From NCBI GenBank assembly GCA_002269645.1, contig NIVC01002183.1:62001-126000 (forward strand): 64,000 bases of DNA. Reading direction: 5' to 3'. A program made the translations under genes and the position numbers. Positions 2,938 to 36,999 of the stretch are shown here, piece by piece. The notes under the pieces are model-generated. The model saw only the letters and a list, made by a program, of their open reading frames with translations. It had not been told where the DNA came from and did not search any database. Numbering within the stretch: the stretch's first letter is position 1; every line of letters begins with the position of its first letter. This stretch comes from Macrostomum lignano. Lineage: Eukaryota.

Positions 2938-3261
2938 TCTCTACAGAGTTAGGGAGAGGACAGCTCTACAGAGTTAGGGAGAGGACAGCTCTACAGAGTT
3001 AGGGAAAGGACAGCTCTATAGAGTTAGGGAGAGGACAGCTCTACAGAGTTAGGGAGAGGACAGCTCTACAGAGTTAGGGAGAGGACAGCTCTATAGAGTT
3101 AGGGAGAGGACAGCTCTTAAAGAGATAGGGAGAGGACAGCTCTTAAAGAGATAGGGAGAGGACAGCTCTACAAAGTTAGGGAGAGGACAGCTCTACAGAG
3201 TTAGGGAAAGGACAGCTCTATAGAGTTAGGGAGAGGACAGCTCTTAAAGAGATAGGGAGAG
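2938..3261. repeat. 25-bp minisatellite (AGAGTTAGGGAGAGGACAGCTCTAC), left part; continues at 15650-15783 after the Polinton
   Basis: The same unit occurs on both sides of the element, so the array was split by the insertion. Confidence 0.92.
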
Positions 3262-3478
3262 AGTAGTATGGGTTAGCAGAACCCTGCCGAACAGTGCGGA
3301 GATAGGAGACTCCGGAGACAGAAAGGCGATGGGCGGAGGTGAGGTGGTGCAAGGAGTTGGGGTGGGTGGGCAGAGTGGCGGGTTGGAGGTGAGGCCGGCG
3401 CAAGGAGGGAGGTGGGTCGGCTGAAAGTTAGCAGAACGCTGCCGAACAGTGCGGAGATAGGAGGACAGAAAGGCGATG
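3262..3478 (+). repeat. Left terminal inverted repeat (TIR-derived tandem subrepeats continue to ~3820)
   Basis: Reverse complement of 15433-15649; no mismatch found by eye. Confidence 0.95.
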
Positions 3479-4002
3479 GGCGGAGGTGAGGTGGTGCAAG
3501 GAGTTGGGGTGGGTGGGCAGAGTGGCGGGTTGGAGGTGAGGCCGGCGCAAGGAGGGAGGTGGGTCGGCTGAAAGTTAGCAGAACGCTGCCGAACAGTGTG
3601 GCGATAGGAGGGCTGAAAAGGCGATGGGCGGGGTGAAGGTGAGGCCGGCGCAAGGAGGGAGGTGGGTCGGCTGAAAGTTAGCAGAACGCTGCCGAACAGT
3701 GTGGAGATAGGAGGGCTGAAAAGGCGATGGGCGGGGTGAAGGTGAGGCCGGCGCAAGGAGGGAGGTGGGTCGGCTGAAAGTTAGCAGAACGTTAGTTAGC
3801 AGAACGCTGCCGAGCAGTGTGGAGATAGAATAGAAGAGCGAGCGTACGGGGTAGGGGGGGGGGCAAGTCAGAGTGTGGGGTTGGTTGAACTGGAGAAATT
3901 GGAGAGGCCCAGCGCGCCTAGCGTGGGGTTGGTCGGTCAGGTGGGGGAGGCAGGTAGCAAAGCAAAGAATCGGAAGGTTTTGGAATAGCAGAGTAAACAA
4001 AT

Positions 4003-4310
4003 TGACAGAGAGGTGAGCTCTAAAACAGTTGTTCAACTCTGCCGCACTTTCACTGTGCAGGGACAGAGAGGTGAGCTCTAAAACAGTTGTTCAACTCTGC
4101 CGCACTTTCACTGTGCAGGGACAGAGAGGTGAGCTCTAAAACAGTTGTTCAACTCTGCCGCACTTTCACTGTGCAGGGACAGAGAGGTGAGCTCTAAAAC
4201 AGCTGTTCAACTCTGCCGCACTTTCACTGTGCAGGGACAGAGAGGTGAGCTCTAAAACAGCTGTTCAACTCTGCCGCACTTTCACTGTGCAGGGACAGAG
4301 GTGAGCTCTA
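4003..4310. repeat. 58-bp subterminal tandem repeat (x~5) inside the Polinton
   Basis: Unit CAGAGAGGTGAGCTCTAAAACAGTTGTTCAACTCTGCCGCACTTTCACTGTGCAGGGA. Confidence 0.9.
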
Positions 4311-4456
4311 GGCGCACTGGCATTGTTAATAAATGAGCAATAAACTTTGCAACGGTTTGTGTGGCTGATGCTGACGAGCAGCCGCTGCTTGATGCCGAAT
4401 AAGCAAAAAATGGGGTGGGTGCTCATTCTGACACCCACCCCACTCCGCTTTGAGGG

Positions 4457-4464
4457 TATATAAG
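4457..4464 (+). promoter_or_regulatory. Candidate TATA box for the PC4-like gene
   Basis: TATATAAG about 85-90 nt upstream of the ATG at 4548, at the end of the subterminal non-coding region. Confidence 0.5.
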
Positions 4465-4547
4465 CCCCGATTTTTTAAATTCAACGGTAAATCTATTTTT
4501 TTCTTGAATTCGATTTCACAAGTTTTCGAAGTGATTTTGTGTGAACT

Positions 4548-5279
4548 ATGGATATTAGTGAAGGTTACAGAGTGCAGGTGCAAGAATTCGAAGGCCAGAA
4601 ATACATCGCGATCAGGAAGTTTTACCGACATGGCAGCACAGCAAGCCTCAAGCCTGGTGTTCCCGGCTTCAACCTGAATGTGCAGCAGTGGACGAAGCTA
4701 AAGGACTTAAAGCGCTCCCTGGTGAAGTCGGCTCTGAACAACGAGCTCAAGGTCATCAAGCTGGGCTTCGACAAATTTGTTCAAGTCAAGGATGGCCTCA
4801 TCTGGCTAAAGCGGCTGCCTGAGGACTGCTGTGATGAATTTATGAAGCGCAACACCGTGCCACTGTCTCCGAAGCTCTGGCAGAAGCTGTGGCAGACTTC
4901 GGACTGGATAGACCAGCAGCTATCAGAGCCCTACCAAGGTGCGGGGGCGAAGTACGAGCTGAGCTCATCCGAAGATGAGGACGAAGACGCCACCCTCATA
5001 CTGCCGGTCAAGACTGAGGCTGCTGAAGGCGAGGAGGAGGTCGGCTCACCATCGGAGCTGACAACCGACATCGAGGCTGTGACTTCCACACCTTTGGCCA
5101 GAGCCGGCACATCGACTGGGAACATCCCGGCGGAGGACACGGACCTACAGCAGGATCCGGTGTGGTACCGATTCCGGGCTCATGCCGCTGAGGTGGAGAA
5201 CAATCGAAAGCGGAAACTGCCGTATCCTCTGCGCAGGCAGGAGACAATGAAGGTGTCTAAGCTGCGTTTTGAAGACTGA
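4548..5279 (+). CDS. PC4/p15-like ssDNA-binding protein, probably two PC4-like repeats plus an acidic tail (243 aa)
   Basis: YRVQVQEFEGQKYIAIRKFY...PGVPGFNLNVQQWTKLK matches the PC4 consensus (V.EFKGK.Y+.IREFY...PG.KGI.L..EQW..L). A weaker second copy is LGFDKFVQVKDGLIWLKR...VPLSPKLWQKL. Acidic run SSSEDEDED follows. Confidence 0.75.
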   Translation: MDISEGYRVQVQEFEGQKYIAIRKFYRHGSTASLKPGVPGFNLNVQQWTKLKDLKRSLVKSALNNELKVIKLGFDKFVQVKDGLIWLKRLPEDCCDEFMKRNTVPLSPKLWQKLWQTSDWIDQQLSEPYQGAGAKYELSSSEDEDEDATLILPVKTEAAEGEEEVGSPSELTTDIEAVTSTPLARAGTSTGNIPAEDTDLQQDPVWYRFRAHAAEVENNRKRKLPYPLRRQETMKVSKLRFED

Positions 5280-5649
5280 GCTGGAGGTTGGATGAGACTG
5301 ATGAGACTCAAAGGATAATTCAGTTTGGTTTGCCTTTGTCTAATTTTATTCAGCTAAGTTAAGTTTTGACAATTGTCGTAACCGTTTAGTCTTATTTATT
5401 CAGGTGTTAACAAACCAAGTTTATACTTAAATGCATGCAATTTATACTTATTTGCACTACTCAGTGTTACTATTTCCTGCAATCTTCTTTTTAAGATCAC
5501 CAACTGTTCGCAGTCCCTAAGTTAAAAAAATATATAATAAGTGTACGGTGTATGAGTTTAATATTGGAATAAAACCTGTCTTTTAAAACGCCAATCGTTG
5601 TTCTTAAGAAAAACATACCTGTGTACATCTGGTTCTTTTTCATTTGAGG

Positions 5650-6715
5650 ATGGAAAAAATTTACTTTGACCCACAACAGCCGGCTAGTTTTTCTAGTGCT
5701 TCCAAACTGTTGAATGAAGTTAGGAGAAGAGGAGATCGCATATCCACTAAGTGCATAGAACAGTGGCTCAGTGAGCAGCCAGTGCACACCCTACACAAGC
5801 CAGCTAGAAGGCGATATCCAAGGGCCCCAATCATAGTGCGGGCTATCGATGATCAGTGGGAACTTGACTTGGTAGAAATGATTCCATTCGCAAAGTATAA
5901 TAAAGGCTACAAATATATTCTCACATGTATTGACGTACTGTCAAAGTGTGCTTGGGCCAAGGCACTGAAAAATAAAACTGCTACAGAAGTGAAGTCAGCA
6001 TTCGAGAGCATACTGAGAAGTTCAAAGCGCCAGCCACGCACAGTTCGCACAGATCAGGGGAAGGAATTTATCAACTCCACTTTCCGTCAATACTGCATTG
6101 ACAGAGGGATTCTGGCTTTCCCAACTAACAGCGAGCAGAAGGCGGCTGTCATTGAGCGATGGAATCGACTCTGAAAAGTAGAATGTGGCGCTACTTCACC
6201 TACAAGAGCACACTGCACTGGCTTGATGTGCTGCCTAAGCTGGTAAAATCTACAACAATACCTACCACAGAAGCATCAAAATGGCACCCACTAGTGTCTG
6301 CAAAGAGAATGAATCTGAAGTGTGGATGAACCTGTACGACGGAAAAGCAGCCGAGACTCTAGAAAAATTAAGGAAGCCTAAATTCGCTGAAAACCAGTCA
6401 GTGAGAATTTCCAATGCTCCACGGCTATTCAAAAAGGGATACAAAGCGAGCTGGAGTGAGGAAGTGTACACCGTGGTGAGCAGAGCCCCAAAACATTATC
6501 CCTACATGTACAAGATTAAAGACATGCGGGGGCAAGAGATTCGAGGACTCTTCCATGAGCACGAGGTGCAGGCTGTCCCAGACTCACAGCGGCTGTATGT
6601 GATTGAGAAGATCCTGAAAACGGAGAAGCGGAAGGGAAAAATTCGCTATCTGGTGAAATGGGCCGGCTACGATTCGACTGGCTGGGTGGATGAAAAAGAC
6701 TTAAGAAAGGTTTAG
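5650..6715 (+). CDS. Retroviral-like (rve, DDE) integrase with C-terminal chromodomain; two -1 frameshifts (~6167, ~6247)
   Basis: KIYFDPQQPASFSS (Maverick integrase N-terminus), DDQWELDL / RTDQGKEF / IERWNR catalytic motifs, and YVIEKIL...YLVKWAGYD chromodomain. Restoring one base at each site gives RTLKSRMWRYFT...LVKIYNNTYHRSIKMAP. Confidence 0.92.
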
Positions 6716-6734
6716 CTTTGGCACATCCCTCATC

Positions 6735-7562
6735 ATGAAGTTTATCTTTATAATGCGAACTATTTTGATTAACAGTGAGCATGCTGAAGGTACTCCTAGT
6801 GACTTTAATTTTTACCTGTCTTCACCTATTTACTTGGATCGAAATGTGGACTATGAGGCAGGTCTGGCTGAAATCCATCTGCCTACTGCATGGTTCAATG
6901 TTGACGAGCCTTACTGCTTCACTGTCTCAGATGGAAGAGAGCATGAGGCCCTGGTTCTTCAACCCGGACGCTTTGCTAGAGTGGAGGAGCTGGTGGAGCG
7001 CCTGAATGAGCTGCTGGCCAACTCTGATTCGCTGTTCTTTGATGCGATGAGTGACAGGGAGTCTGAGATGGAGGCTGATGAGTCCGGCCTGATGGGGCGT
7101 AGTGGCAACAGGGAATTTGGTATGAAGTTCGAAATCCGCAACTCACGAACTGTGGTGCACAACAACACTACGAGAGCAGAGCTGTTTCTCCCATCCAGCA
7201 AAATTCTGCATTGGCTGGGATTCGGAAACCAGGCTGTGAAAATCCAGCCAGGGAGCCGCGTGTCCGAGCATTGCATTGGCTGCCCGCGCACCAGCTTAAT
7301 CAATGTGCACTGCAGTATCATTGAGTCAACTAATTGCGACTGGGGCTCCTTGTTGAGAACAGTTGGAATGAAAGCTGGCATTGAATGGGGCAACTATCAA
7401 ACAAAAATATTTAAGAAAACAATATTCTTCCCGATTCAACGAATCAGTATTCTCCACAGCATTCGAGTTCAGCTGCGGGACATCTATGGTTGCCTACTGA
7501 TTGCACAGACTCACAGCCCTGTTCTGCTCACAGTTCAGATTCGAGAGAAACGCATTCAATGA
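6735..7562 (+). CDS. Minor capsid protein (penton, single jelly roll), Polinton type
   Basis: TPSDFNFYLSSPIYL..YEAGLAEIHLPTAWFNV at the N-terminus; INVHCSIIE and IRVQLRDIYG at the C-terminus. Position is next to the major capsid gene. Confidence 0.8.
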   Translation: MKFIFIMRTILINSEHAEGTPSDFNFYLSSPIYLDRNVDYEAGLAEIHLPTAWFNVDEPYCFTVSDGREHEALVLQPGRFARVEELVERLNELLANSDSLFFDAMSDRESEMEADESGLMGRSGNREFGMKFEIRNSRTVVHNNTTRAELFLPSSKILHWLGFGNQAVKIQPGSRVSEHCIGCPRTSLINVHCSIIESTNCDWGSLLRTVGMKAGIEWGNYQTKIFKKTIFFPIQRISILHSIRVQLRDIYGCLLIAQTHSPVLLTVQIREKRIQ

Positions 7563-7948
7563 ACTACCAGCAGCTGATCCAGCAATATTCGGGGGTGAGG
7601 ACAGCACACGAAAAGCCTGCACTCAATGGCTGTGGGAGCTTCCCTGGGATCATGACATACCAGCCTCCTCCAGCGGCTACATCATTATCCTCAACGCTTA
7701 GCAATGTCAGGCGCAAAAGAAATGCTGAAGCAAGTCCGAAACGATTGAAGAAGAAGAAGCGCACCCGAAAGGCAACTGGTGGCGATCGCCTCAATAAGAG
7801 GTCCAATGGAAGAAAGCCGAGCAAGGCTAGTAGGAAAAAGCTTAAGAATAGGAAGACGAAAGCAAAGAAGAATAGAGCAGGCGGAGGAAAGCGACAGCAA
7901 AAAGTCAGCAAGAAAACTGTGAAACGCGTGCTCGACTCTCTGTCATAG
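7559..7948 (+). CDS. Small Lys/Arg-rich protein, putative virion core/DNA-condensing protein (129 aa)
   Basis: The ATG overlaps the penton stop (ATGA). GCGSFPG..YQ motif, then a highly basic C-terminal half (KRLKKKKRTRK, SRKKLKNRKTKAKK). Confidence 0.6.
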   Translation: MNYQQLIQQYSGVRTAHEKPALNGCGSFPGIMTYQPPPAATSLSSTLSNVRRKRNAEASPKRLKKKKRTRKATGGDRLNKRSNGRKPSKASRKKLKNRKTKAKKNRAGGGKRQQKVSKKTVKRVLDSLS

Positions 7949-7950
7949 AC

Positions 7951-9225
7951 ATGGCTTACGGATTCAATCCCAGACTTGATTTATTTAAGACGCCCGTTCT
8001 ACAAACCTGCATTGAAAAAGCTACTTATGTTGATATTCACCCAGTAATTCCATTGTTGCAAACTCCCCATTGAATTTGACTGCCACCAATCTGCCGATGA
8101 ATACACAGATCTGCTAATTCTTTTCTTTATATTCGCTGCCGCCTTGTGAGACTGGATGGGGGTTTGCTGAGGGAGGATGTTCGAGATGGAGATGGCATCA
8201 TCACCGAGCGCAGAGACAGTGATGTGCACCCAGAAAACTTTGTTCTGTCTACAGTCTTCTCAGATGTAATTGTGAGCATTAACCAGCGAGTGGTGTCTGG
8301 TGGAGACCAGCTCTATCCCTACCATGCGTACTTCAAAGCACTAATGAGCTCATCTGATGCCCAGCAACTAAAACTTTACCCTGCTGGCTTCCTGGAGCCG
8401 GACTCTGCAGCTGAAGAGCACACGGAGAGCCACAGGGAATCCCGATGGATGGAGTATGCGGGGCCGCTCTTCAGCGATGTTTTCCAGTGCCCAGTGTTTC
8501 TGCTAAGCAATCTGCACTTGCACATCAAACTGGTCCCCAGCGATGGGGCCTTTGCCATCAGAACCCCGAATGTAAACAACGCGGCTTATCGCATGGAAAT
8601 CTCTCACAGCATTCTTCATCTTCGCCGAGTCAAAGTGGTGCCCCACATCAGCCTGGCTCACGAGCAGGGGCTGACAAACCAAAATGCACTGTATCCCATC
8701 GAGCGAACTGAAATGCAGAACTTCATCCTACCCCAGGGCATTCAATCTAAAAACATTGAAGGATTCACTCATGGAAAATTGCCGAAGTTCATCATGCTGG
8801 CCTTCGTGAGCCACCGAGCATTCAACGGTCATCATCACGCGAGTCCGTTCCAGTTCCAGAGCTTCAACCTCAGCCGGTTGGCTCTAAAGAAAGGTGGAGA
8901 GACCGTGTGCCACGGCGCCTTCACACCTGAAAACAATTCCTTTGTAAGAGAATACTTGCACTACATGAAAAGCTGTCAATCTGCAAGCAATTCGGTCCCG
9001 TGGATCCCCTACCAGCTCTTCTCCAACAACAACACGGTGTTTGCATTCGATCTCACACCAGAGGGAGCGGCTCTGTGGTACGGACAGAAGGAGGGCAACC
9101 TGCGGCTGGAGATTCGCTTCCGACAGGCTCTGGACGAAACGGTGTCCCTGATCGCTCTGTGCCTGTATGACTCGTTGATTGAGGTCACCAAGCACCGGGA
9201 GCTTTTGCTGGACTATTCCTCTTAA
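7951..9225 (+). CDS. Major capsid protein (double jelly roll, hexon-like); apparent 1-bp deletions at ~8048, ~8066, ~8112
   Basis: ATG 7951 gives MAYGFNPRLDLFKTPVLQTCI; with the frameshifts repaired it reads PIEFDC..DEYTDLANSFLYIRC. Also YAGPLFSDVFQ and the C-terminus FAFDLTPE...GNLRLEIRF..LIEVTKHRELLLDY, typical of Maverick MCPs. Confidence 0.9.
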
Positions 9226-9230
9226 TTGGC

Positions 9231-9740
9231 ATGGACGCAATTCAACTACTTAATCTCGCCAGAAAATTTTTGTCTTGCCGAAAATTTCTCATCATTACTT
9301 TACATTCACGCTATAAAAATGTTTTGCCTTTGAGTCTAAAAAGAAAATATCGATCAATTTCCCTTGAAAATAAGTTTGTTTTTGTTCTACTACAGCACAA
9401 TGGTTCATTTGGTCATTGGGTGGTGTGCTATGTTGGACAAGGAAATTGCATTGAGCTGTTCAACTCCCTCGGCTGGGAACCTGAAATTTTATCTGTGGTT
9501 TATAATTTGTTTCGAGAGATTAAAACAACTGGCTTTTGGCTCCGAAGCAATATAAACAGATTTCAATGTGCTAACTCTAATAAATGCGGAATGTTTTGCA
9601 TCTATTTTGCTTATCAAAAGTTTCTGTTCAATCGGTCATTTGAGGGGATTTTGAAGCATTTGCATGCTAATGAAAAAAATCATTTGAATGATAGAATCTT
9701 ACAGAGGTTTGAAGCCAACTTAAGAAAAATATGTGCGTGA
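9231..9740 (+). CDS. Adenain-like cysteine protease (virion maturation)
   Basis: GHWVVCY (His), IELFNSLG, and RFQCANSNKCGMFCIYF (Gln, Cys). Confidence 0.88.
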   Translation: MDAIQLLNLARKFLSCRKFLIITLHSRYKNVLPLSLKRKYRSISLENKFVFVLLQHNGSFGHWVVCYVGQGNCIELFNSLGWEPEILSVVYNLFREIKTTGFWLRSNINRFQCANSNKCGMFCIYFAYQKFLFNRSFEGILKHLHANEKNHLNDRILQRFEANLRKICA

Positions 9741-9764
9741 TTTCTAATATTTATGCATTAAGAC

Positions 9765-10412
9765 ATGGCAGAAAAGCGAGTTTGCTACGATATCCGCCTC
9801 AGACAGGGAAGCTGCATGATTGTCTGCGGGCCCACCAATGCAGGAAAAACAACCTTTGTCAAACACCTGATCCAGTACAGAGACGTCATGTTTGATGTGA
9901 AGCCTGGCAGAGTTCTGTGGTACTATGGGATCTCACAGGCAGGCCATACAGAATTGAGCAGCCTAGGTGTGCAGCTGCGCCAGGGATTTCCCACCAACAT
10001 CGAGGCAGCACTTAGGCCCAATGACCTGGTTGTTTTCGATGACTTAATAGAGGAAACTTCAAACTCTGCTTCAATGCGAAATTTTTTCACAGGAATCGCA
10101 CATCACTTGCCGTGCTTCTTGGTGATGCTGACTCAGAATATATTTTTCAAGGGAAAAGAGTCGCGAACAATGAGCTTGAATGTAATGTATTTAGCTATCT
10201 TGAAAAACCCCAGAGACCAGCTGCAGATTGCAGCACTGGGCAGGCAGTGCTTTACAGAAAAACCCGGCTTTCTGCTTTCAGTGTTCAGGCATGTAACAGC
10301 ACAGGGAAGGGGAGCCTATCTGTTTCTGGATTTTCATCCATCAACTCCTGATGAGCTGCGAGTGCGAGCTAGAATTTTACCCAACCAGCGACCCCATCTT
10401 GTCTATGCTTAA
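9765..10412 (+). CDS. FtsK/HerA-family (A32-like) DNA packaging ATPase
   Basis: Walker A GPTNAGKTT, Walker B LVVFDD, then MLTQNIF and SLNVMYLAILKNPRD. Confidence 0.92.
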   Translation: MAEKRVCYDIRLRQGSCMIVCGPTNAGKTTFVKHLIQYRDVMFDVKPGRVLWYYGISQAGHTELSSLGVQLRQGFPTNIEAALRPNDLVVFDDLIEETSNSASMRNFFTGIAHHLPCFLVMLTQNIFFKGKESRTMSLNVMYLAILKNPRDQLQIAALGRQCFTEKPGFLLSVFRHVTAQGRGAYLFLDFHPSTPDELRVRARILPNQRPHLVYA

Positions 10413-10450
10413 GAATAGCTCCGTTGCTTTGTAAGCTTTTTTCTCAAAAA

Positions 10451-10753
10451 ATGGAAGCTCTTGAATTGCATAGAAACATTTTTGTAATTCTTGCGTCATC
10501 AAAATATACTGTTAGCTTTAAGCGCGTACTAATAAAGCGCGGCCCAAGAGAAGTGAGAAATTTTCTTGCCGAGGCCTGCTACAATCTATTGGAAAACAAC
10601 TTGTCTTTCTCGCTTACTGAAAAGGCAGTTTTGGTTAAGTCGAGACACATAATTCGAAGAATTACAACTCAAAGAAGGAAAGAAGACTTGTGCAATGCTG
10701 CATTCATAAAAATTCTACCTATTCTGTTAAAGCTCGTCAAGAAAAAGAAATAA
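10451..10753 (+). CDS. Small basic conserved Polinton protein (PW-like), function unknown
   Basis: FLAEACYNLLENNL...KAVLVKSRHIIRRI...FIKILPILL resembles the small gene usually found beside the Maverick ATPase. Confidence 0.6.
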   Translation: MEALELHRNIFVILASSKYTVSFKRVLIKRGPREVRNFLAEACYNLLENNLSFSLTEKAVLVKSRHIIRRITTQRRKEDLCNAAFIKILPILLKLVKKKK

Positions 10754-10754
10754 G

Positions 10755-11456
10755 ATGAACAAATTCACCGAAATGGTTCTGATCTCCAAGTCCGAGTATG
10801 ACATGCTGATGCAGAATTTGAAGCCGACTGAGTCTGCAAGCGAATATAGTTTAAAGCATGCCCAGCAAAAATGTGATGATATCTTGTATACTGAGGATTA
10901 TCCCGCAGAAGTAAAAAGAAACATGTATCAGAATGCAATGCAGAGTGTTTTGACCAAGCGCAAGCAAGCAGAGGAAGAAGCTACAAAGAGCAAAGCTAAA
11001 GCAAAGACGATGAAAGCAGATCTGCCGCAGAACAACTGGGAGGAGAAGATCAGCAAATCAGTGCCTCAGAAATTCAAGACCAGGGCCCGCAGTCTATGGG
11101 CAAGCCTGTCAGACAAGCCTGAATTGATTCAAGTTTTGGGAAATGGAGAGGTGGAAATTTCAGGCACATCGATTCCTTGCTCAAACATACTGGACTTAGT
11201 TCAACACGCAGTGAGGGATTCAGTAGGTGGGAGTGAACCAGTTGGGTGGAATGAATTTTTTTGGTTACTACAGCGAAAGCAGCTGAATGTTCCAGTTTCG
11301 GCAATCGGGAAATCAGTTAAAAACCAACTATCACTAGTGAGTGACTCGGCAGGGGCTGAATTGAAAAAAGAGCAGCAGGATATAGTCAAGGGACTAGGAA
11401 GCAAGACAGCCTGGCTGAGGTTGAGCCAGAGAAAAGTATATAAGAAGACAAAGTGA
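10755..11456 (+). CDS. Conserved Polinton protein of unknown function (233 aa)
   Basis: GEVEISGTSIPCSNILDLV...EPVGWNEF...LNVP matches a motif I recognise from Maverick accessory ORFs. Confidence 0.65.
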   Translation: MNKFTEMVLISKSEYDMLMQNLKPTESASEYSLKHAQQKCDDILYTEDYPAEVKRNMYQNAMQSVLTKRKQAEEEATKSKAKAKTMKADLPQNNWEEKISKSVPQKFKTRARSLWASLSDKPELIQVLGNGEVEISGTSIPCSNILDLVQHAVRDSVGGSEPVGWNEFFWLLQRKQLNVPVSAIGKSVKNQLSLVSDSAGAELKKEQQDIVKGLGSKTAWLRLSQRKVYKKTK

Positions 11457-11489
11457 CAATATTTAAAAATCAAAGTGATCTTTCTCAAT

Positions 11490-12335
11490 ATGAACTATAT
11501 TGACATCCAAGGATTTCCTTGCGAAAGAGAAAGCAAAGAATATATTATAAAAGAATTTGCTGTTGTTCAAGTCAGAGCAGGAAGCTTCCGCATCGCTCAC
11601 CACATCTACGCTCCCCCTTATCCATGGGAGAGAGTTTCACCTGAGATGCGGTTCTACTACAAGAGGCTATCAAAGAATTTGCACAAGCTTAAGTGGAACG
11701 ATGGAACCCGTCCGTACATGGATCTAGCAGATGACACTCTGAACATTACCAGTGGTCCTATCTGGACGAATGGAGCGAAGAAGTCGATGTTTTTGACTAA
11801 GTTGCTTGGCAGACAGGTACACAACCTAGAAGATTTGGGAACACCTTCAGTTGAAGAGTCAGACACCGGGTGTGCAGTGCGGAATGCATTGATGTACTAC
11901 AGTTGGCTCAGACCCAAGTTCTGTATCAGCTTAAGAAGCGACCAGTGTCCTTGGCACGAGAGCAGGCACGAGAGCGGGCACAGCAGCATTGGTGAAGAAA
12001 TTTCCGATCATAATGTGTTCAGCTCTAAAAGTGACAAACCTAGTCGGCGGAGTAGACTTGAAACTGGATGGGGGCGAGGGCGCTCAGCTGCCTCTACGGG
12101 AACTGGCTCTCAGCATGGCTCATGTGATCTACCGGCCCGCCTGGCCCCGAGTGCTTATCAAGAGGATGCGGACTCCCAGAGTAACGTTGCTACTCTACCC
12201 TACTGGCCAACTGAGCATCTGTGGTGCCAAGACCCACGCAGACGCCAAAAGGGCTGCCCATCGCTTTGTGGCTATGCTACATCGCAGAGTTTCGACTCAA
12301 CTGCTGCCTCCTCAAGTTATCTGTTTTCGAGTTAA
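11490..12335 (+). CDS. DEDD/DnaQ- or Maelstrom-like nuclease-fold protein; low-complexity C-terminal part overlaps the TBP-like ORF
   Basis: YIDIQGF...YIIKEFAV...HHIYAPPYPW...LHKLKWNDG...CAVRNALMYYSWL. Similarity appears confined to about the first 145 aa (to ~11920). Confidence 0.5.
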   Translation: MNYIDIQGFPCERESKEYIIKEFAVVQVRAGSFRIAHHIYAPPYPWERVSPEMRFYYKRLSKNLHKLKWNDGTRPYMDLADDTLNITSGPIWTNGAKKSMFLTKLLGRQVHNLEDLGTPSVEESDTGCAVRNALMYYSWLRPKFCISLRSDQCPWHESRHESGHSSIGEEISDHNVFSSKSDKPSRRSRLETGWGRGRSAASTGTGSQHGSCDLPARLAPSAYQEDADSQSNVATLPYWPTEHLWCQDPRRRQKGCPSLCGYATSQSFDSTAASSSYLFSS

Positions 12336-12576
12336 GACAATAACTGCGCATGGTCAACTTTCAATAGGCTCTGCATTATCTTTGCTGGACTTGTCAAAGA
12401 AAATTCCAAAAGCTGAATATGAACCTGAGTCTTTTTCTGCGTTAATTTTTGATGTCAGTTGTTGCAAATGTCTTCTATTTCATAGTGGCTCATTTGTATT
12501 AAGTGGTGCTCGGTCAATGGCACAATTGCGAACTGCCTGTATGCGTTTGCGCAAACTAGTTTTCCAGTCTCAGTAA
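12013..12576 (+). CDS. TATA-binding protein (TBP/TRF)-like protein encoded by the Polinton (187 aa, both repeats)
   Basis: KVTNLVGGVDL..LPLRELAL..VIYRP..RMRTPRVTLLLYPTGQLSICGAK..AKRAAHRF aligns with TBP [53 protein letters not shown]. Repeat 2 AEYEPESFSALIF..LLFHSGSFVLSGAR aligns with SSYEPELFPGLIY..LLIFVSGKVVLTGAK. AATAAA at 12578. Confidence 0.9.
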   Translation: MCSALKVTNLVGGVDLKLDGGEGAQLPLRELALSMAHVIYRPAWPRVLIKRMRTPRVTLLLYPTGQLSICGAKTHADAKRAAHRFVAMLHRRVSTQLLPPQVICFRVKTITAHGQLSIGSALSLLDLSKKIPKAEYEPESFSALIFDVSCCKCLLFHSGSFVLSGARSMAQLRTACMRLRKLVFQSQ

Positions 12577-13069
12577 AAATAAACTAAAAAGTCAAATTCT
12601 GTGCATCGGTAAATTTTGCTTGGAATTGAGCATATTGTGCTTGGTTTTTTATTTCACGTTATGAAAATGATAAGAGAAAAAACTGATACAATGAAAACAA
12701 AAATTAAGCAAACAGAAAAACTAGCAATATGAAAACATTATTGTCAAACTGAAAAACATTTAAGCTCATGCAAAAGAAGTTGAAAAAGAAACAGAATTTT
12801 ATTTCACAAGCAAACAAGTTTATTTAAAGAAAAACTACAAACAATCGTCAATAAAAATAAGTACTTCAAATTCAACTGATGGCTAACAAAAGAATGGAGA
12901 ACGAGAACCTACGGTCGTAAGTTTCTCTATTAAAAAAAGCAGACATGAAACTTCATTTGTACGTTTAACCTATCTTTTTACAACATGCAATCAATTCACT
13001 GATACAATCGATAGAATATTGCAAAATTTATTAAAAAGCATAACAGCTATTAAAATTACGAACATCAAT

Positions 13070-15432
13070 TCAACAATCAGTTAGTCTAGCTCGCTTGGGA
13101 CTGCCAATGAAAGGCACTTCGTAGGTCGGCCGCTTAAGAGTCCGTACTTGGGAGTTAGAGGTTCGCAATGCACAGTGACCAAATGGAAGACTTGAATTTG
13201 CGTTTGTCCATGCTCGCTTATCCTCCCAAACTGTCAATGCTCGCTTGGACTGCTCAGTTGTAAAAACACGATGACGCTTGCTGCCGATACGTCGAACTTG
13301 AACTGTTAGCTCTTGGAGAGAATAGAATGCTTCTCGGTAGCTCTGGTGTGTGATTACACTGCGGACGACAGATTTTTGTACACCCTTAGCGACCTTCTTG
13401 TTTATCTGAGGGCAGCTTTCATCTGCAAGCATCGAATAAAGCTTTGGGCGAAGGAGAATCCACTCCTTAAATTTTGCACCAGACGATTCGTCCTTCAGAC
13501 AGCCAAGCCTTGCTTTCAGTTTGTTAGACTTTAGAATGTGACCATCAGGATAGTTGCTTGTGTCTAGCAATCCGGCTTTAATCATTTCTGGTAGCACGTA
13601 ACCTTGAACATCTAGGTTCTCTAAACATAGAAACAGCGAGTCAGTGTCTCCTCCACATAGTTTCAATCTGCTATGAGGAACCTGCTCGAATCGCGACTTA
13701 AGCTCACAGTAAAAGAGGTTATACATGACCAATTTAGAATTGTCTAAGACACACTGCCCGATATAAACAGGCCGGTTAAGCTTGATATTGGTCTTCGATA
13801 GTTGGAATATTGATATTGTTTCATTAACAATTAGGAAGTCTTTCAGCGTAGGCTTGGAACAGAAGATTCTGGCTTGTTCTTCGCTTGTGCAAATTCGAAT
13901 ATCTTTTCTTTTCCGGACATTTTCCATTGTCTTTCCGAACAAAGAGTTATTTTTCAGCTTGTAGTAATTTCGCTCAAAATCACTGGTAGCGGCCGATCGG
14001 CACTCACTATTTTTTCTAATGTAAGGCTCAAATACACGCTCTTGTGAGAAGGCAATCGCCCGATGAATCTTCTTGATCTTCATCCCTTGCTGAAGATAAA
14101 ATTTGAGTATGTTCGAGTGTACTACGTAGCGCTCTTTGTCGTAGCATGTTAGAAGTAGCTTTTGGCAAGGATGATACGGACGGTCTTCATTCAGCTGAAG
14201 TTGGCTCCAGAGTTCTTTCATGAATTCGGGAAATTCGTTGTAATCAACTTTTCCTTTTTCAGGTGCAAATGGTAAGTCTTCTGTCTGTCTATGAAGTTCG
14301 TCTGGATAAAGTAAGTCAAGCTCGACTAGATAGGCGATGGGTGAGTCTTCAGTTAAGGATAAGAATGTTTCAGCAGTCCACTCCTCAATTGTCTGGTTCT
14401 CAACCCATTTGAAACCACTTGTAGGCAAAGGCATTGAGAGCGCAACACCATACAAATTGTTGACATCCAATGGAATTAAAGCAGCACTTTTTGGAGGCTG
14501 ATCAAGAGCAATGAAGTTTTCATCATCATCTACTTTCTCATATGCTTGAGCTTGATGCACATTAGTAAAAGTTATGCCTCCACGAATACCTCGCTCAAAC
14601 ATTCGATACATATCCACATCAGTGAGCAGCTCTAACTTTGCGCCGGTGTTTTTTAGAGCAGAATCAAACGATAGACCTGGTGTAGTTATGTAATGGAGAG
14701 GATCCAAGCCATCGTCTTGCAGACTCAACTTGCGGAAGGACTCAAAGACATCGGCCAATTGGCGAATGTCTAGTTCTAGGTAGCGATTCATGTAATCTCC
14801 AAGGTTCTGGCAATTAAATTGGCACCATGCTCGCTGAGCGCGACTGTAGTCAGCATCACTACACTCCGTCTTTGTCAGTGAGTTGAAGAAACTATTCTGA
14901 TCTGGCAGCGCGGTAGTTTGCAAGTCAGAAGTGCTTTGAATATAGTCGTAAGGGAAAATACCCTTGCTAAGAAGAATTTCCTCAGAGACATTTGGGAACG
15001 CGTTGCGCATTTGCATTGTCACGTTACACTCACTTGCTAGCATGTTTCGCATCAGGTTATCAAGACTACAGTTTAAAAACTGAAGCGAGTCTAAAAATTG
15101 CAGACTAAATGTAACTGGCTTCTGGCGACCCTGAATTTCAACAATGTCTACAACGAATTCGGCTCTTAGAGACAAGTAGCGCTCTATCGACTGAGGAATC
15201 ACGGATATTTTCCAGTGAGTCATTCGCTTTAGAGCTGTAGAAAACAACAAATGACAATCATAGCCTGCTAGGTTATGAAAAAGGATCGGCAAAAAGCGTC
15301 GCTTAAGTTGGGATCGCATGTTACAATCAGGACAAGAAGCCCCCTTGAATTGTCCGGTCAAGTGGTCATGATCCCAGTGCTTCTGAGATGGGTCTGGGAA
15401 AACCGATCCGCAGCGGAAGCAAGTAGTCGACT
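13070..15432 (-). CDS. Protein-primed family B DNA polymerase, N-terminally truncated at the right TIR
   Basis: CFRC..DHDHLTG..CPDCN, FHNLAGYD, FLDSLQFL, KGIFPYDY, RGIRGG, DVNNLYG (motif A), KLKNNSLFGK (B), GDTDSLF (C), LLRPKLY. The frame runs into the TIR without an ATG; the first in-frame ATG is at 15319. Confidence 0.95.
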
Positions 15433-15649
15433 CATCGCCTTTCTGTCCTCCTATCTCCGCACTGTTCGGCAGCGTTCTGCTAACTTTCAGCCGACCCACC
15501 TCCCTCCTTGCGCCGGCCTCACCTCCAACCCGCCACTCTGCCCACCCACCCCAACTCCTTGCACCACCTCACCTCCGCCCATCGCCTTTCTGTCTCCGGA
15601 GTCTCCTATCTCCGCACTGTTCGGCAGGGTTCTGCTAACCCATACTACT
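15433..15649 (-). repeat. Right terminal inverted repeat of the Polinton
   Basis: Reverse complement of 3262-3478. Confidence 0.95.
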
Positions 15650-15831
15650 GGAGAGGACAGCTCTACAAAGTTAGGGAGAGGACAGCTCTACAGAGTTAGG
15701 GAGAGGACAGCTCTATAGAGTTAGGGAGAGGACAGCTCTTAAAGAGATAGGGAGAGGACAGCTCTACAGAGTTAGGGAGAGGACACACACACACACACAC
15801 ACACACAGCTACTCATTCCCTCGCACTCCAG

Positions 15832-18800
15832 CTAGTGGTCGTGTTCATCTTCTTAGCAGCAGTTGTTGCCTACCGTTTACTTGTGTCGGTGCCGCTATTC
15901 CGCAACCCGCTGTTTCACGCCCGAGCCAACCTGCTGGCCAACGCCTCGGCTGCTGTGCTCAACCTGATCATCATCATGTGTCTGGGACAGGTCTACGAGA
16001 AGCTGGCCTACCGCATCACCCAGTGGGGTAAAGATCTTAGAATGATATCATCATATTTTTCTAGGCGAACCTAGGCATAACCCTAATACAAATAAGAATG
16101 CCCATTTGCCTGTACCAGCCGCTGTTACAAGGTGAATTGCTTTCATAAACTCGAAACTTCATATGGTTTCGAGTTTTTAAAGCCTCTCCCCCCTGTTTCC
16201 CCTCTGAACTCTACTTTCTCCTCTCTCCTTTCTCCTCTCTACTTTCTCCTCTCTAAATTCTCGCTTCTCTCGTCTCATTCATTCCCTCACCTCTCCGTCC
16301 CCTCTTCTCTATTCCCTCTCCTGGCTCCCCTCCTCTGGCGCGCAGTCATGCTCTTGGTTCTCCATCGGCCCTTGAGCTAAAATAGTTTGCCGAGCCCTGA
16401 TGTAGACTATATACGCTCGTAAATGACTGTTCTTGGCCTACGAGTGCGCTTCTCATCACGCTGTGTGCACAAATTTGCAGAAATGCACCGGACTCAAACT
16501 GAATTCGAGGACCAGCTGGCGCTGAAAGTGTCCATCTTTCAAATCGTAAACTACTACTCTTCAATAGTGTACATCGCATTTTTCAAAGGCAAATTCATGG
16601 GACTACCCGGTCGCTATCTCACTTTTCTTGGCCTGCGAAACGAAGAGTGCGACAGTGGCGGCTGTTTAATCGAGTTGGCCCAGCAGCTCGGCGTCATCAT
16701 GATTGGCAAGCAGATCATCAACAACTGCCAGGAATTCGTTCTGCCGTGAGTCATGGCTAACTGTTTGTGACTTGCATTCTAGGACAAATGCGAACTACTG
16801 TTCTTATACTACTTACTCACACTTGGTACTGTCTTGAAAGGAGCGGTTTGAAACTAGCGCGGAAAACTTTAGGTTCTCGTAAGTACAAGTAGCTATCCTC
16901 AAATCCTTAGCTTGCTTCAGACCCCCCCCCGATCATTAGCACCGCTACACCGGAGACCCTTAGCACCGCTACACCGGAGATCCTTAGCACCGCTACACCG
17001 GAGATCCTTAGCACCGCTACACCGGAGATCCTTAGCACCGCTACACCGGAGATCCTTAGCACCGCTACACCGGAGATCCTTAGCACCGCTACACCGGAGA
17101 TCCTTAGCACCGCTACACCGGAGATCCTTAGCACCGCTACACCGGAGATCCTTAGCACCGCTACACTGGAGATCCTTAGCACCGCTCGGCCTCCCCCCCC
17201 CCCGATACTTAAAACGAGCCTTTAAAGGAACGCTGTAAGAACCCACATTGTCTGAACTCATTGAAACTGCGGAAAAGATAGAAACACGATACTCGTCAAT
17301 AAATTTTACGTGCATGTGGCTCTGGTTCTTTTAGTGTCGAAAAATTCACAAAAGCAGCAAAAACTGCATACAGGAAGCTGGCCTCGTGGATCCATCGATT
17401 TCGCAGCGGATTAAAGAGCTCAACAGCGGCAGAGATGGACGACAGCAATGAATCCAGCGGCCAGAGATTAACCCGTTGTGAGGCCGACTATCGTCTGGTC
17501 CCGTACGAGGGCCTGTTCGATGAGTACCTGGAGATGGTGCTGCAGTTCGGCTTCATCACCATCTTTGTGGCGGCGTTTCCGCTGGCGCCGCTTTTCGCTC
17601 TGCTGAACAACTGGCTGGAAATTCGATTGGACGCCGGCAAGCTTGTCCGGGACACTCGCCGGCCAGTGTCCGAACGGGCGCAGGGAATCGGGATTTGGTT
17701 CTCGCTGTTGGAGGTGATGGTCAAGCTGTCAGTCATATCCAATGTGAGAGCAAGTCGCAATGCACTTACAGTGTATATCAGTTGTATCTAGCTCGTATGT
17801 AGTAATGTAATGTATCTGTTGTATTGTATCTAGGGGGCTGTAGCCTAGTGGTTAGAGCGTCGGACTCATAACTTGAAGGTTGGGGGGCTCGATTCCTGAT
17901 CCTACTGGAACAATTTATGTCCTTTGAGCAAGACATTTAACTCTATATTGCTTCAGTTCACCCAGCTGTAAAATGGATGTGTGTGGCGACCCCCCCCCCC
18001 AAATCCTACCTTGGACTGCATGAACAGCCGTACGCAGCCTTCAGATGCGCCGCGCAATGGCTGCGGCTGAGCTGGGCTGTAACGCTTTACGTCCCAGATG
18101 TTGCCCCTTTGACAGTATCTGACTGAAAAGCATGCGTTTAAGCAGATAAATAAACCTCCTTGAAGTCTATAGTTAAAGTAAAACCTGTGATCGACAACTT
18201 TTCAATTCACCCACAGGCTTTTCTAATCGCATTCACCTCCGAGTTTCTGCCCAGACAGCTTTACCGCCACGTCGTGGACTCCGAGCTGCGCGGATACGCA
18301 AACTTCAGCTTGGCCTGGGCGCCGCCCAACGCCACCTCGCAGCCTTGCCGCTATCGGGCCTTCCGAGACGCCGATGGCAACTACAGCATGTTCCACTGGC
18401 GCCTCCTGGCTGTGCGGCTGGGCTTTGTCATTTTGTTTGAGGTTGGCTCCAGTTCCAGTTGAAAAAAGGAAGGATACCAGTACAAAAACTTAGGACATCG
18501 CAACGATTTAATTCAAACCAACTGGAGTTTGAAGCGAATTAGAGTGCAAGTGAACTTGTACATCAGCGCCAAAGACTGTTGAAATTCGTCACTTGAAAAA
18601 ACCTAGCTCCCAAATCAATAAATCAACAACTAGTTGCTTAGGGAATTAAATACGTCTGACTCTCGCGCCACGACCATTTGGTTTGATTCCTGAGCGGCCA
18701 CGTTCATTTGGGGCAATTGTGCACGAAAATTGACTGTGGGTTGTCGAGCGAGATTCACATCCATGAGGACCAACCACCCAAGGCACAGAGAGTATACATG

Positions 18801-27713: not shown

Positions 27714-36999
<9,286 letters not shown>

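Follow-up and report, generated by a model that had tools for sequence, protein, structure and literature searches.

Control of the capsid genes and virion formation in animal Mavericks is an open question, and a 64,000-nt stretch of the Macrostomum lignano genome (the whole of which we call the window) bears on it. The window holds a Maverick, or Polinton, with an open reading frame that resembles a TATA-binding protein (TBP). We asked whether this is a real TBP of the element and which promoters it might read.

A Maverick element with a TBP gene

The element has the ends of a Polinton/Maverick, with 217-nt terminal inverted repeats (TIRs) that are 100% complementary, AG-start termini (AGTAGT...ACTACT) and the 6-bp target-site duplication GGAGAG on both sides (Table 1). 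The TBP ORF lies inside these boundaries, as a first-pass annotation made from the sequence alone had claimed. A protein-primed B-family polymerase (pPolB) and an rve integrase are both encoded and both damaged in the window copy: the integrase is interrupted, as is the putative major capsid protein (MCP), and the 5′ part of pPolB is absent. The putative MCP and putative penton ORFs gave no Pfam match, and these capsid labels are presumed from gene order. The insertion site is a 24-nt tandem repeat (window 2940-3261 and 15650-15760), and about five copies of a ~57-nt direct repeat lie at 4013-4310, between the left TIR and the PC4 promoter. The element is probably within an intron, because ORFs on both sides (778-1347 and 16423-17791) look like what we take to be anoctamin exons. 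Further ORFs at 30343-35234 on the minus strand presumably represent a non-LTR retrotransposon (endonuclease, reverse transcriptase and RNase H parts). A PC4-domain gene stands behind a canonical TATA box in both Maverick clades described below (window 4548-5279; 325-798 in the clade-B copy L031), and its product may be a second basal-transcription-type factor or an ssDNA-binding protein.

Table 1. Coordinates of the element, its genes and its candidate promoter boxes in the window.
Feature	Position	Strand	Basis
Maverick element	3262-15649	n/a	TIRs and target-site duplication
Left target-site duplication, GGAGAG, 6 bp	3256..3261	+	sequence
Left TIR, 217 nt, begins AGTAGT	3262..3478	+	sequence
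Canonical TATA box TATATAAG, 91 nt before PC4 start; also in L071 and L072	4457..4464	+	motif search
PC4-domain protein (coactivator/ssDNA-binding fold)	4548..5279	+	PF02229 E 5.9e-9
YWTAAGAA box (CTTAAGAA) before integrase	5603..5610	+	motif search
rve integrase with C-terminal chromodomain, interrupted (pieces 5650-6174, 6281-6715)	5650..6715	+	Pfam
Box before putative penton gene	6700..6707	+	motif search
275-aa ORF, putative minor capsid/penton	6735..7562	+	gene order
Box TTTAAGAA, TAAGAA core 147 nt before basic-protein start	7410..7417	+	motif search
K/R-rich 129-aa ORF, putative core protein	7559..7948	+	translation
Box before putative MCP gene	7841..7848	+	motif search
Putative MCP, interrupted near 5′ end	7951..9225	+	gene order
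Adenain-like cysteine protease, candidate	9231..9740	+	PF00770 E 0.002, under cut-off; expected place
Box before ATPase	9719..9726	+	motif search
P-loop ATPase, putative packaging ATPase	9765..10412	+	Pox_A32 E 0.019, weak, under cut-off; expected place; Walker A visible
Box before ORF100, overlaps ATPase stop codon	10408..10415	+	motif search
ORF100, 100 aa, no family match	10451..10753	+	Pfam
ORF233, 233 aa, no convincing family match	10755..11456	+	Pfam
Composite TATATAAGAA, canonical TATA overlapping box, before ORF281	11437..11446	+	motif search
ORF281, 281 aa, tail overlapping first 107 TBP codons	11490..12335	+	translation
Box 83 nt before TBP start; in 9 other clade-A loci examined	11930..11937	+	motif search
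Two-repeat TBP-fold gene of 187 aa without N-terminal extension	12013..12576	+	Pfam and model
AATAAA, one base past TBP stop, putative polyadenylation signal	12578..12583	+	sequence
pPolB, 5′ part missing	13070..15319	-	PF03175 E 1.5e-18
Right TIR	15433..15649	-	sequence
Right target-site duplication, GGAGAG	15650..15655	+	sequence

The annotation had described an intact two-repeat TBP with its own AATAAA, and this description holds. The 187-aa frame has no stops and matches PF00352 in two stretches (E 2.4e-26), and solved TBP structures match it at E 7e-13 to 2e-10. An AlphaFold2 model (pLDDT 91.8, from a 14-row alignment) has the two-repeat saddle fold of the TBP family, with a TM of 0.84 against human TBP (1cdw) and a Z of 20.6 with an rmsd of 1.9 Å over 175 residues against 7egb_P. 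The gene is indeed intronless, as had also been claimed, but this is undiagnostic since the core domains of host TBP and TRF2 lie in single open frames as well. Its identity to cellular TBPs is only ~25-30%, and the closest relative that carries a name is a hypothetical protein of Macrostomum lignano (81%). Contigs from three runs, guessed to be RNA and with a profile like that of a DNA-type run, cover a large share of the element and reach into the TBP gene over its first half; we give them no weight as a sign of expression.

A selected gene family in two clades

Searching the genome yielded at least 152 TBP matches (150 of 231 candidates scored). By hand count, ~108 of the 150 matches listed are near full length and free of stops, in a copy number that assembly duplication may have inflated. 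The copies form two clades, A and B, which are only ~34% identical. Upstream ORFs and a convergent PolB-like ORF are present at 27 of the top 30 loci; of the other three, two run into a contig end and the third holds a different insert. The one clade-B copy examined likewise sits between TIRs, in an element whose integrase, putative MCP, protease, ATPase and PC4 genes follow a different order. Relatives at 30-73% identity occur in other datasets, and scans of viral contigs and metagenomes gave no confirmed locus for relatives P0003-5, P0007, P0029, P0160, P0161 and P0163 or for the short-TBP family described below. Over codons 3-108, dN/dS is 0.07-0.27 in all 36 pairs of nine clade-A representatives, and over codons 109-172 it is 0.06-0.27 in 24 of the 36 pairs, the other 12 being saturated. 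The TBP gene is under purifying selection and is no dead retrocopy.

All Maverick rows group together, separately from host TBP and TRF2, both of which we found as ordinary genes in the genome; support for this clade is an SH-aLRT of 96 in a quick tree (162 rows, 142 of 147 library rows kept) and 99/98 in a careful tree of 50 hand-picked rows with long branches. Cellular TBPs group at 99/95 in the careful, long-branched tree, away from the Maverick and other short TBPs. However, in AU tests neither a grouping with host TBP (p 0.09) nor TRF2 as sister (p 0.28) could be rejected, though TRF2 stands apart in the trees.

The first 107 TBP codons share their DNA with ORF281 in another frame, a point absent from the annotation. 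In seven clade-A copies, the ORF281 frame is open over the first 107-111 TBP codons despite 13-17 synonymous chances of a stop, and past the overlap it has 4-9 stops; in clade B (L031), an upstream ORF is open to TBP codon 129. TBP synonymous divergence is about halved in the overlap (0.27 vs 0.47-0.54). The overlap points to an overprinted tail or translational control. In some copies, ORF281 and TBP are joined in a single open frame of 358-391 aa (G000 C4402, C4807, C2930, C2941 and C3017; protein P0010), probably through indels or assembly errors in the overlap. ORF281 itself is blank in Pfam and falls into unnamed clusters in the Atlas with a Maelstrom lead at 0.88, and its N-terminal domain is possibly DEDD/Maelstrom-like, which we treat as a lead; its fold model was discarded (pLDDT 41.8). 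Several families (L003, L005, L007 and L060) are 97-98% identical up to mid-TBP; identity drops to 61-86% in the remainder of the gene and further still past it, and their polymerases differ. It appears that polymerase arms have been swapped, with a junction that falls between the two TBP repeats, close to the KTIT motif (window ~12334).

A rebuilt DNA face and conserved TFIIB-contact glutamates

We compared 18 Maverick and Maverick-like rows with yeast TBP, whose numbering was transferred by alignment offsets. N69, V71, T112, L114, E186, E188, F190 and F207 are kept in 18/18 rows, and F116Y, T124C, Q158K, N159T and V203K, together with V161T/S, V122S/T and P191S/T/N, are likewise found in 18/18. 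Both residue claims of the first-pass annotation are borne out: the repeat-2 phenylalanines and the acidic stirrup are present (F190, F207, E186 and E188), in repeat 1 F99 aligns to P45 (with W44 adjacent) and F116 to Y62, and the second Asn, N159, aligns to T109. All 13 clade-A rows have Pro in the F99 column; for clade B the residue depends on the aligner, with Pro in one alignment and Leu in two. Where a canonical TBP has four intercalating Phe and two minor-groove Asn, the Maverick protein has P/Y/F/F and a single Asn. The acidic C-terminal stirrup that serves TFIIB in canonical TBPs is present in every row, the TFIIB-side residue L189 varies among the 18 rows, and K133 and R141 vary among the Maverick TBPs. 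Judged by sequence, the acids that contact TFIIB are kept and the DNA face is remodelled towards more polar residues. The intercalation sites of host TRF2 read Y/R/H/F, a pattern that the Maverick TBP does not share. The analogy with TRF2 in the annotation is thus a loose one: Phe positions are changed in both proteins, but to different residues, and the box described below is still TATA-like.

N159T is found in 3 of 207 longer TBPs vs 21 of 31 short TBPs (<=175 aa) in a short-TBP sample enriched through searching with N159T-type proteins. TBPs of ~170 aa with N159T and V161S/T make up a large unannotated family with its own clade at 99/93 (P0164, P0166-P0174, P0036, P0026, P0064 and others), and this family may belong to other Polintons.

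A TATA-variant box precedes many element genes

YWTAAGAA occurs within 150 nt upstream of eight genes of the window element. All seven matches to CTTAAGAA in the 64-kb window are inside the element, a count reached in 3 of 100 whole-window shuffles, and the six in sense orientation precede the starts of the genes for integrase, putative penton, putative MCP, ATPase, ORF100 and TBP by 35-110 nt. Of 11 gene starts, 6 have the word within 130 nt (best-word p, corrected for word choice, between 2e-4 and 8e-4 under six settings), and none of 3000 local dinucleotide shuffles went above 4 of the 11 starts. For the TAAGAA core, all eight sense matches in 4331-12700 are within 150 nt of a start. With this core fixed beforehand, matches stood before starts in 7 of 8 cases in a third lineage, L072 (47-91% protein identity, p 9e-5), 5 of 5 in L069 (p 3e-4) and 2 of 2 in L031 (p 0.04); these binomial p values overstate independence because boxes at homologous positions have a common origin. 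Across the gene arm of clade B, 7 of 7 TAAGAA matches are before starts.

The box precedes seven of the same genes in L072 and six in clade B (the penton gene twice), and the clade-B ATPase is preceded by TAAGAG only. When flanking bases were left free in the search, Y was found at 21 of 22 sites and W at 21 of 22; three of seven clade-B sites read TATAAGAA. Most box sites are 33-62 nt before the ATG, and six of the eight window boxes are inside upstream coding sequence, some of them in K/R-rich tails. The box is absent before the protease and ORF233, and TAAGAA is absent from the element TIRs. At the ORF281 site of L072, the TATA part is lost and TAAGAA is kept. A canonical TATA box precedes PC4 in 4/4 copies examined, and in clade B a canonical TATA also stands 53 nt upstream of TBP, with another before the pPolB remnant. 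A TBP-less Maverick that could serve as a control was not found among the 98 putative-MCP candidates scored of 492, all of them close relatives.

A candidate late-promoter factor and its alternatives

We consider it reasonably probable that the Maverick TBP is a virus-specific late-promoter TBP that acts like the herpesvirus ORF24/TATT system but with host TFIIB. Host TBP would first transcribe the genes with canonical TATA boxes, namely PC4 and, in clade B, pPolB and TBP. The Maverick TBP would then bind the 8-bp YWTAAGAA, as a promoter, through its remodelled and more polar saddle, and the conserved acidic stirrup would bring in host TFIIB, and hence host Pol II, at the genes for the integrase, putative capsid proteins, core protein and ATPase and at their neighbours. 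The clade-A TBP gene has its own box and would be driven by positive feedback. The annotation had proposed a promoter-recognition factor, and indirect evidence favors it: purifying selection, invariant TFIIB-contact glutamates and a conserved TATA-variant box at structural and packaging genes. Host TFIIB is the likely partner because no TFIIB homologue was found at element loci, where a sequence-level search of the genome gave 13 PF00382 matches from 23 candidates and none on the contigs of the TBP list.

The altered residues can be set against the box. PMC1636458 reports that P191 forces T at TATA position 1 and that contacts to the 3′ half are made by the N-terminal repeat. Set against TATAWAWR, box position 1 is C/T and positions 6-8 are G-A-A. 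By the rule given there, loss of P191 fits the C found at position 1 in 14/22 sites, and the N-terminal repeat, which is the more altered, fits the 3′ half A-G-A-A, the most distinctive part of the box, which it would contact. By the structural rules for TBP exclusions quoted in the available part of PMC13566119, CTTAAGAA at positions 1-8 breaks no strict exclusion; for this reason, and because of the clade-B sites that read TATAAGAA, host TBP might use some boxes. Among the same quoted rules, Val119 excludes a G facing it, and there may be a second register, T-A-A-G-A-A, in which the G at position 4 faces T111 (the Val119 site) and the conserved Y and W fall outside the footprint. Against a late-promoter reading, the box is also before the integrase and ORF281 and not before virion genes alone, it is missing before the protease and ORF233, and the change of F99 to Pro in clade A and the variable L189 likewise count against it.

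The use of some boxes by host TBP would be general if the Maverick protein were a TBP of relaxed specificity, proof against regulation, that boosts all element promoters and escapes Mot1, NC2 and TAF1, with the box a weak TATA. Such a box is structurally compatible with canonical TBP in the accessible text of PMC13566119, some sites are TATAAGAA or TATATAAGAA, PMC7221094 makes the case that N-lobe signatures for host regulators have been lost from viral TBPs, and K133 and R141 vary in the Maverick TBPs. We nevertheless regard it as unlikely: the G-A-A 3′ half is kept at homologous sites across lineages, the ORF281 site of L072 has TAAGAA without the TATA part, and PC4 has a distinct canonical box in every copy examined. 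The TAAG core could alternatively be read by the RNA polymerase of a helper virus of the baculovirus or nudivirus type, leaving the TBP with a separate job. TAAG is the core of baculovirus late promoters, a match that might by analogy also weaken the late-promoter TBP. PLVs that parasitise large viruses are described in print. Conservation over an 8-bp footprint, the spacing of most sites, which suits a TATA position, and the retention of a TBP with an altered DNA face make a helper polymerase quite unlikely.

The annotation had also raised a decoy, which would titrate host TFIIB or occupy promoters and so damp host genes or quiet the integrated element. Invariant TFIIB-contact glutamates combined with the loss of one intercalating Phe and one Asn would suit it; we judge it very unlikely, with a matching box before the element's own genes, and it is the weaker of the two readings in the annotation because all 18 rows carry specific new residues at the DNA-facing positions, without drift. 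A TBP that bends DNA for replication, integration or packaging and has no role in transcription would agree with a gene that adjoins pPolB, with a second half that moves with the polymerase arm in recombinants and with a PC4 that can act as an ssDNA-binding protein. It is highly improbable in our view, as it leaves the invariant TFIIB stirrup without a reason, and the boxes sit before genes and not in the TIRs. Finally, the AU tests are compatible with an old capture; that the gene is a captured host retrocopy drifting neutrally is nonetheless hardly credible, since dN/dS far below 1 refutes neutrality and the gene has low identity to cellular TBPs, two deep clades and distant relatives in other datasets.

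From its sequence, the Maverick TBP is genuine, encoded by the element and under selection, and it has a candidate promoter to match; its function is what we infer. It suggests a very small virus-made switch for late genes on the host polymerase, and it turns capsid-gene control into a testable pair of a small protein and an 8-bp box in a lab flatworm. If the late-promoter reading is true, this is a natural TBP with its TFIIB surface kept and its DNA surface rewired, which bears on the evolution of TBP specificity. More tentatively, Polintons might have a one-gene late-transcription system, in which a minimal retuned TBP and a matching box work with host TFIIB and Pol II, different lineages pair different TBPs with different boxes, and the ~170-aa N159T TBPs belong to such elements. 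Such a system would explain the timing of virion genes in some Mavericks without a polymerase or helper, and would provide natural altered-specificity TBP/promoter pairs.

Comparison with known TBP systems

A TBP in a Polinton-type virus has been labelled before. The legend of Fig. 5 in Starrett et al. 2021 (PMC8502044) gives a 'TBP' gene label in MELD/adintovirus-related genomes, as does the preprint; the accessible text names no carrier element, residues, promoter or function, and one supplement of that paper had no TBP match. The Maverick TBP is accordingly less novel than the annotation had assumed, while we found no precedent for its function or box. TBP is mentioned in other elements in the available part of PMC10675990, and we found no TBP mention in the accessible text of PMC8097293, 10.64898/2026.06.19.733378, PMC11131425 and PMC12220804. 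In literature outside subscription journals and Repbase, we found nothing on Maverick TBP function, the YWTAAGAA box or Macrostomum Mavericks.

With cellular TBP and TRF2, the Maverick TBP shares the fold, N69, F190/F207 and the acidic stirrup. It differs from cellular TBP by F99P (clade A), F116Y, N159T, V161T, P191S and V203K, and the residues lost in TRF2 are others. The model resembles cellular TBP, at the TM given above, more than it does any viral model (BFVD; best TMq 0.76, 5-17% identity). Like the TBPs of large dsDNA viruses, it is a two-lobe TBP in a dsDNA virus; in the available part of PMC7221094, however, those TBPs mostly come with their own TFIIB and their TFIIB glutamates vary, whereas at the sequence level no co-encoded TFIIB is found at the Maverick loci.

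By analogy, KSHV ORF24 is the closest working analogue of the Maverick TBP. In the accessible text of PMC12529657, ORF24 reads TATTWAA with a polar TBP face, and the Maverick system resembles this beta/gamma-herpesvirus vTBP in having a virus-encoded TBP fold, a polar DNA face and, as proposed here, a TATA-variant box on late genes and the use of host Pol II. The box is present and conserved in the Mavericks, and it would be shared by late genes, as in herpesviruses, if our reading of its promoter activity and timing is right. As described in the same text, ORF24 is multidomain, works in a six-protein complex, binds Pol II directly, keeps four Phe and is without the TFIIB glutamates. Unlike ORF24, the Maverick TBP is a bare 187-aa protein, all of which aligns to the TBP core, with no Pol II-binding N-terminus, and it has both glutamates in an element of ~12 kb. 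If the late-promoter reading is true, the viral-TBP strategy for late promoters is not confined to herpesviruses and giant viruses but reaches a virus-like element of very small size.
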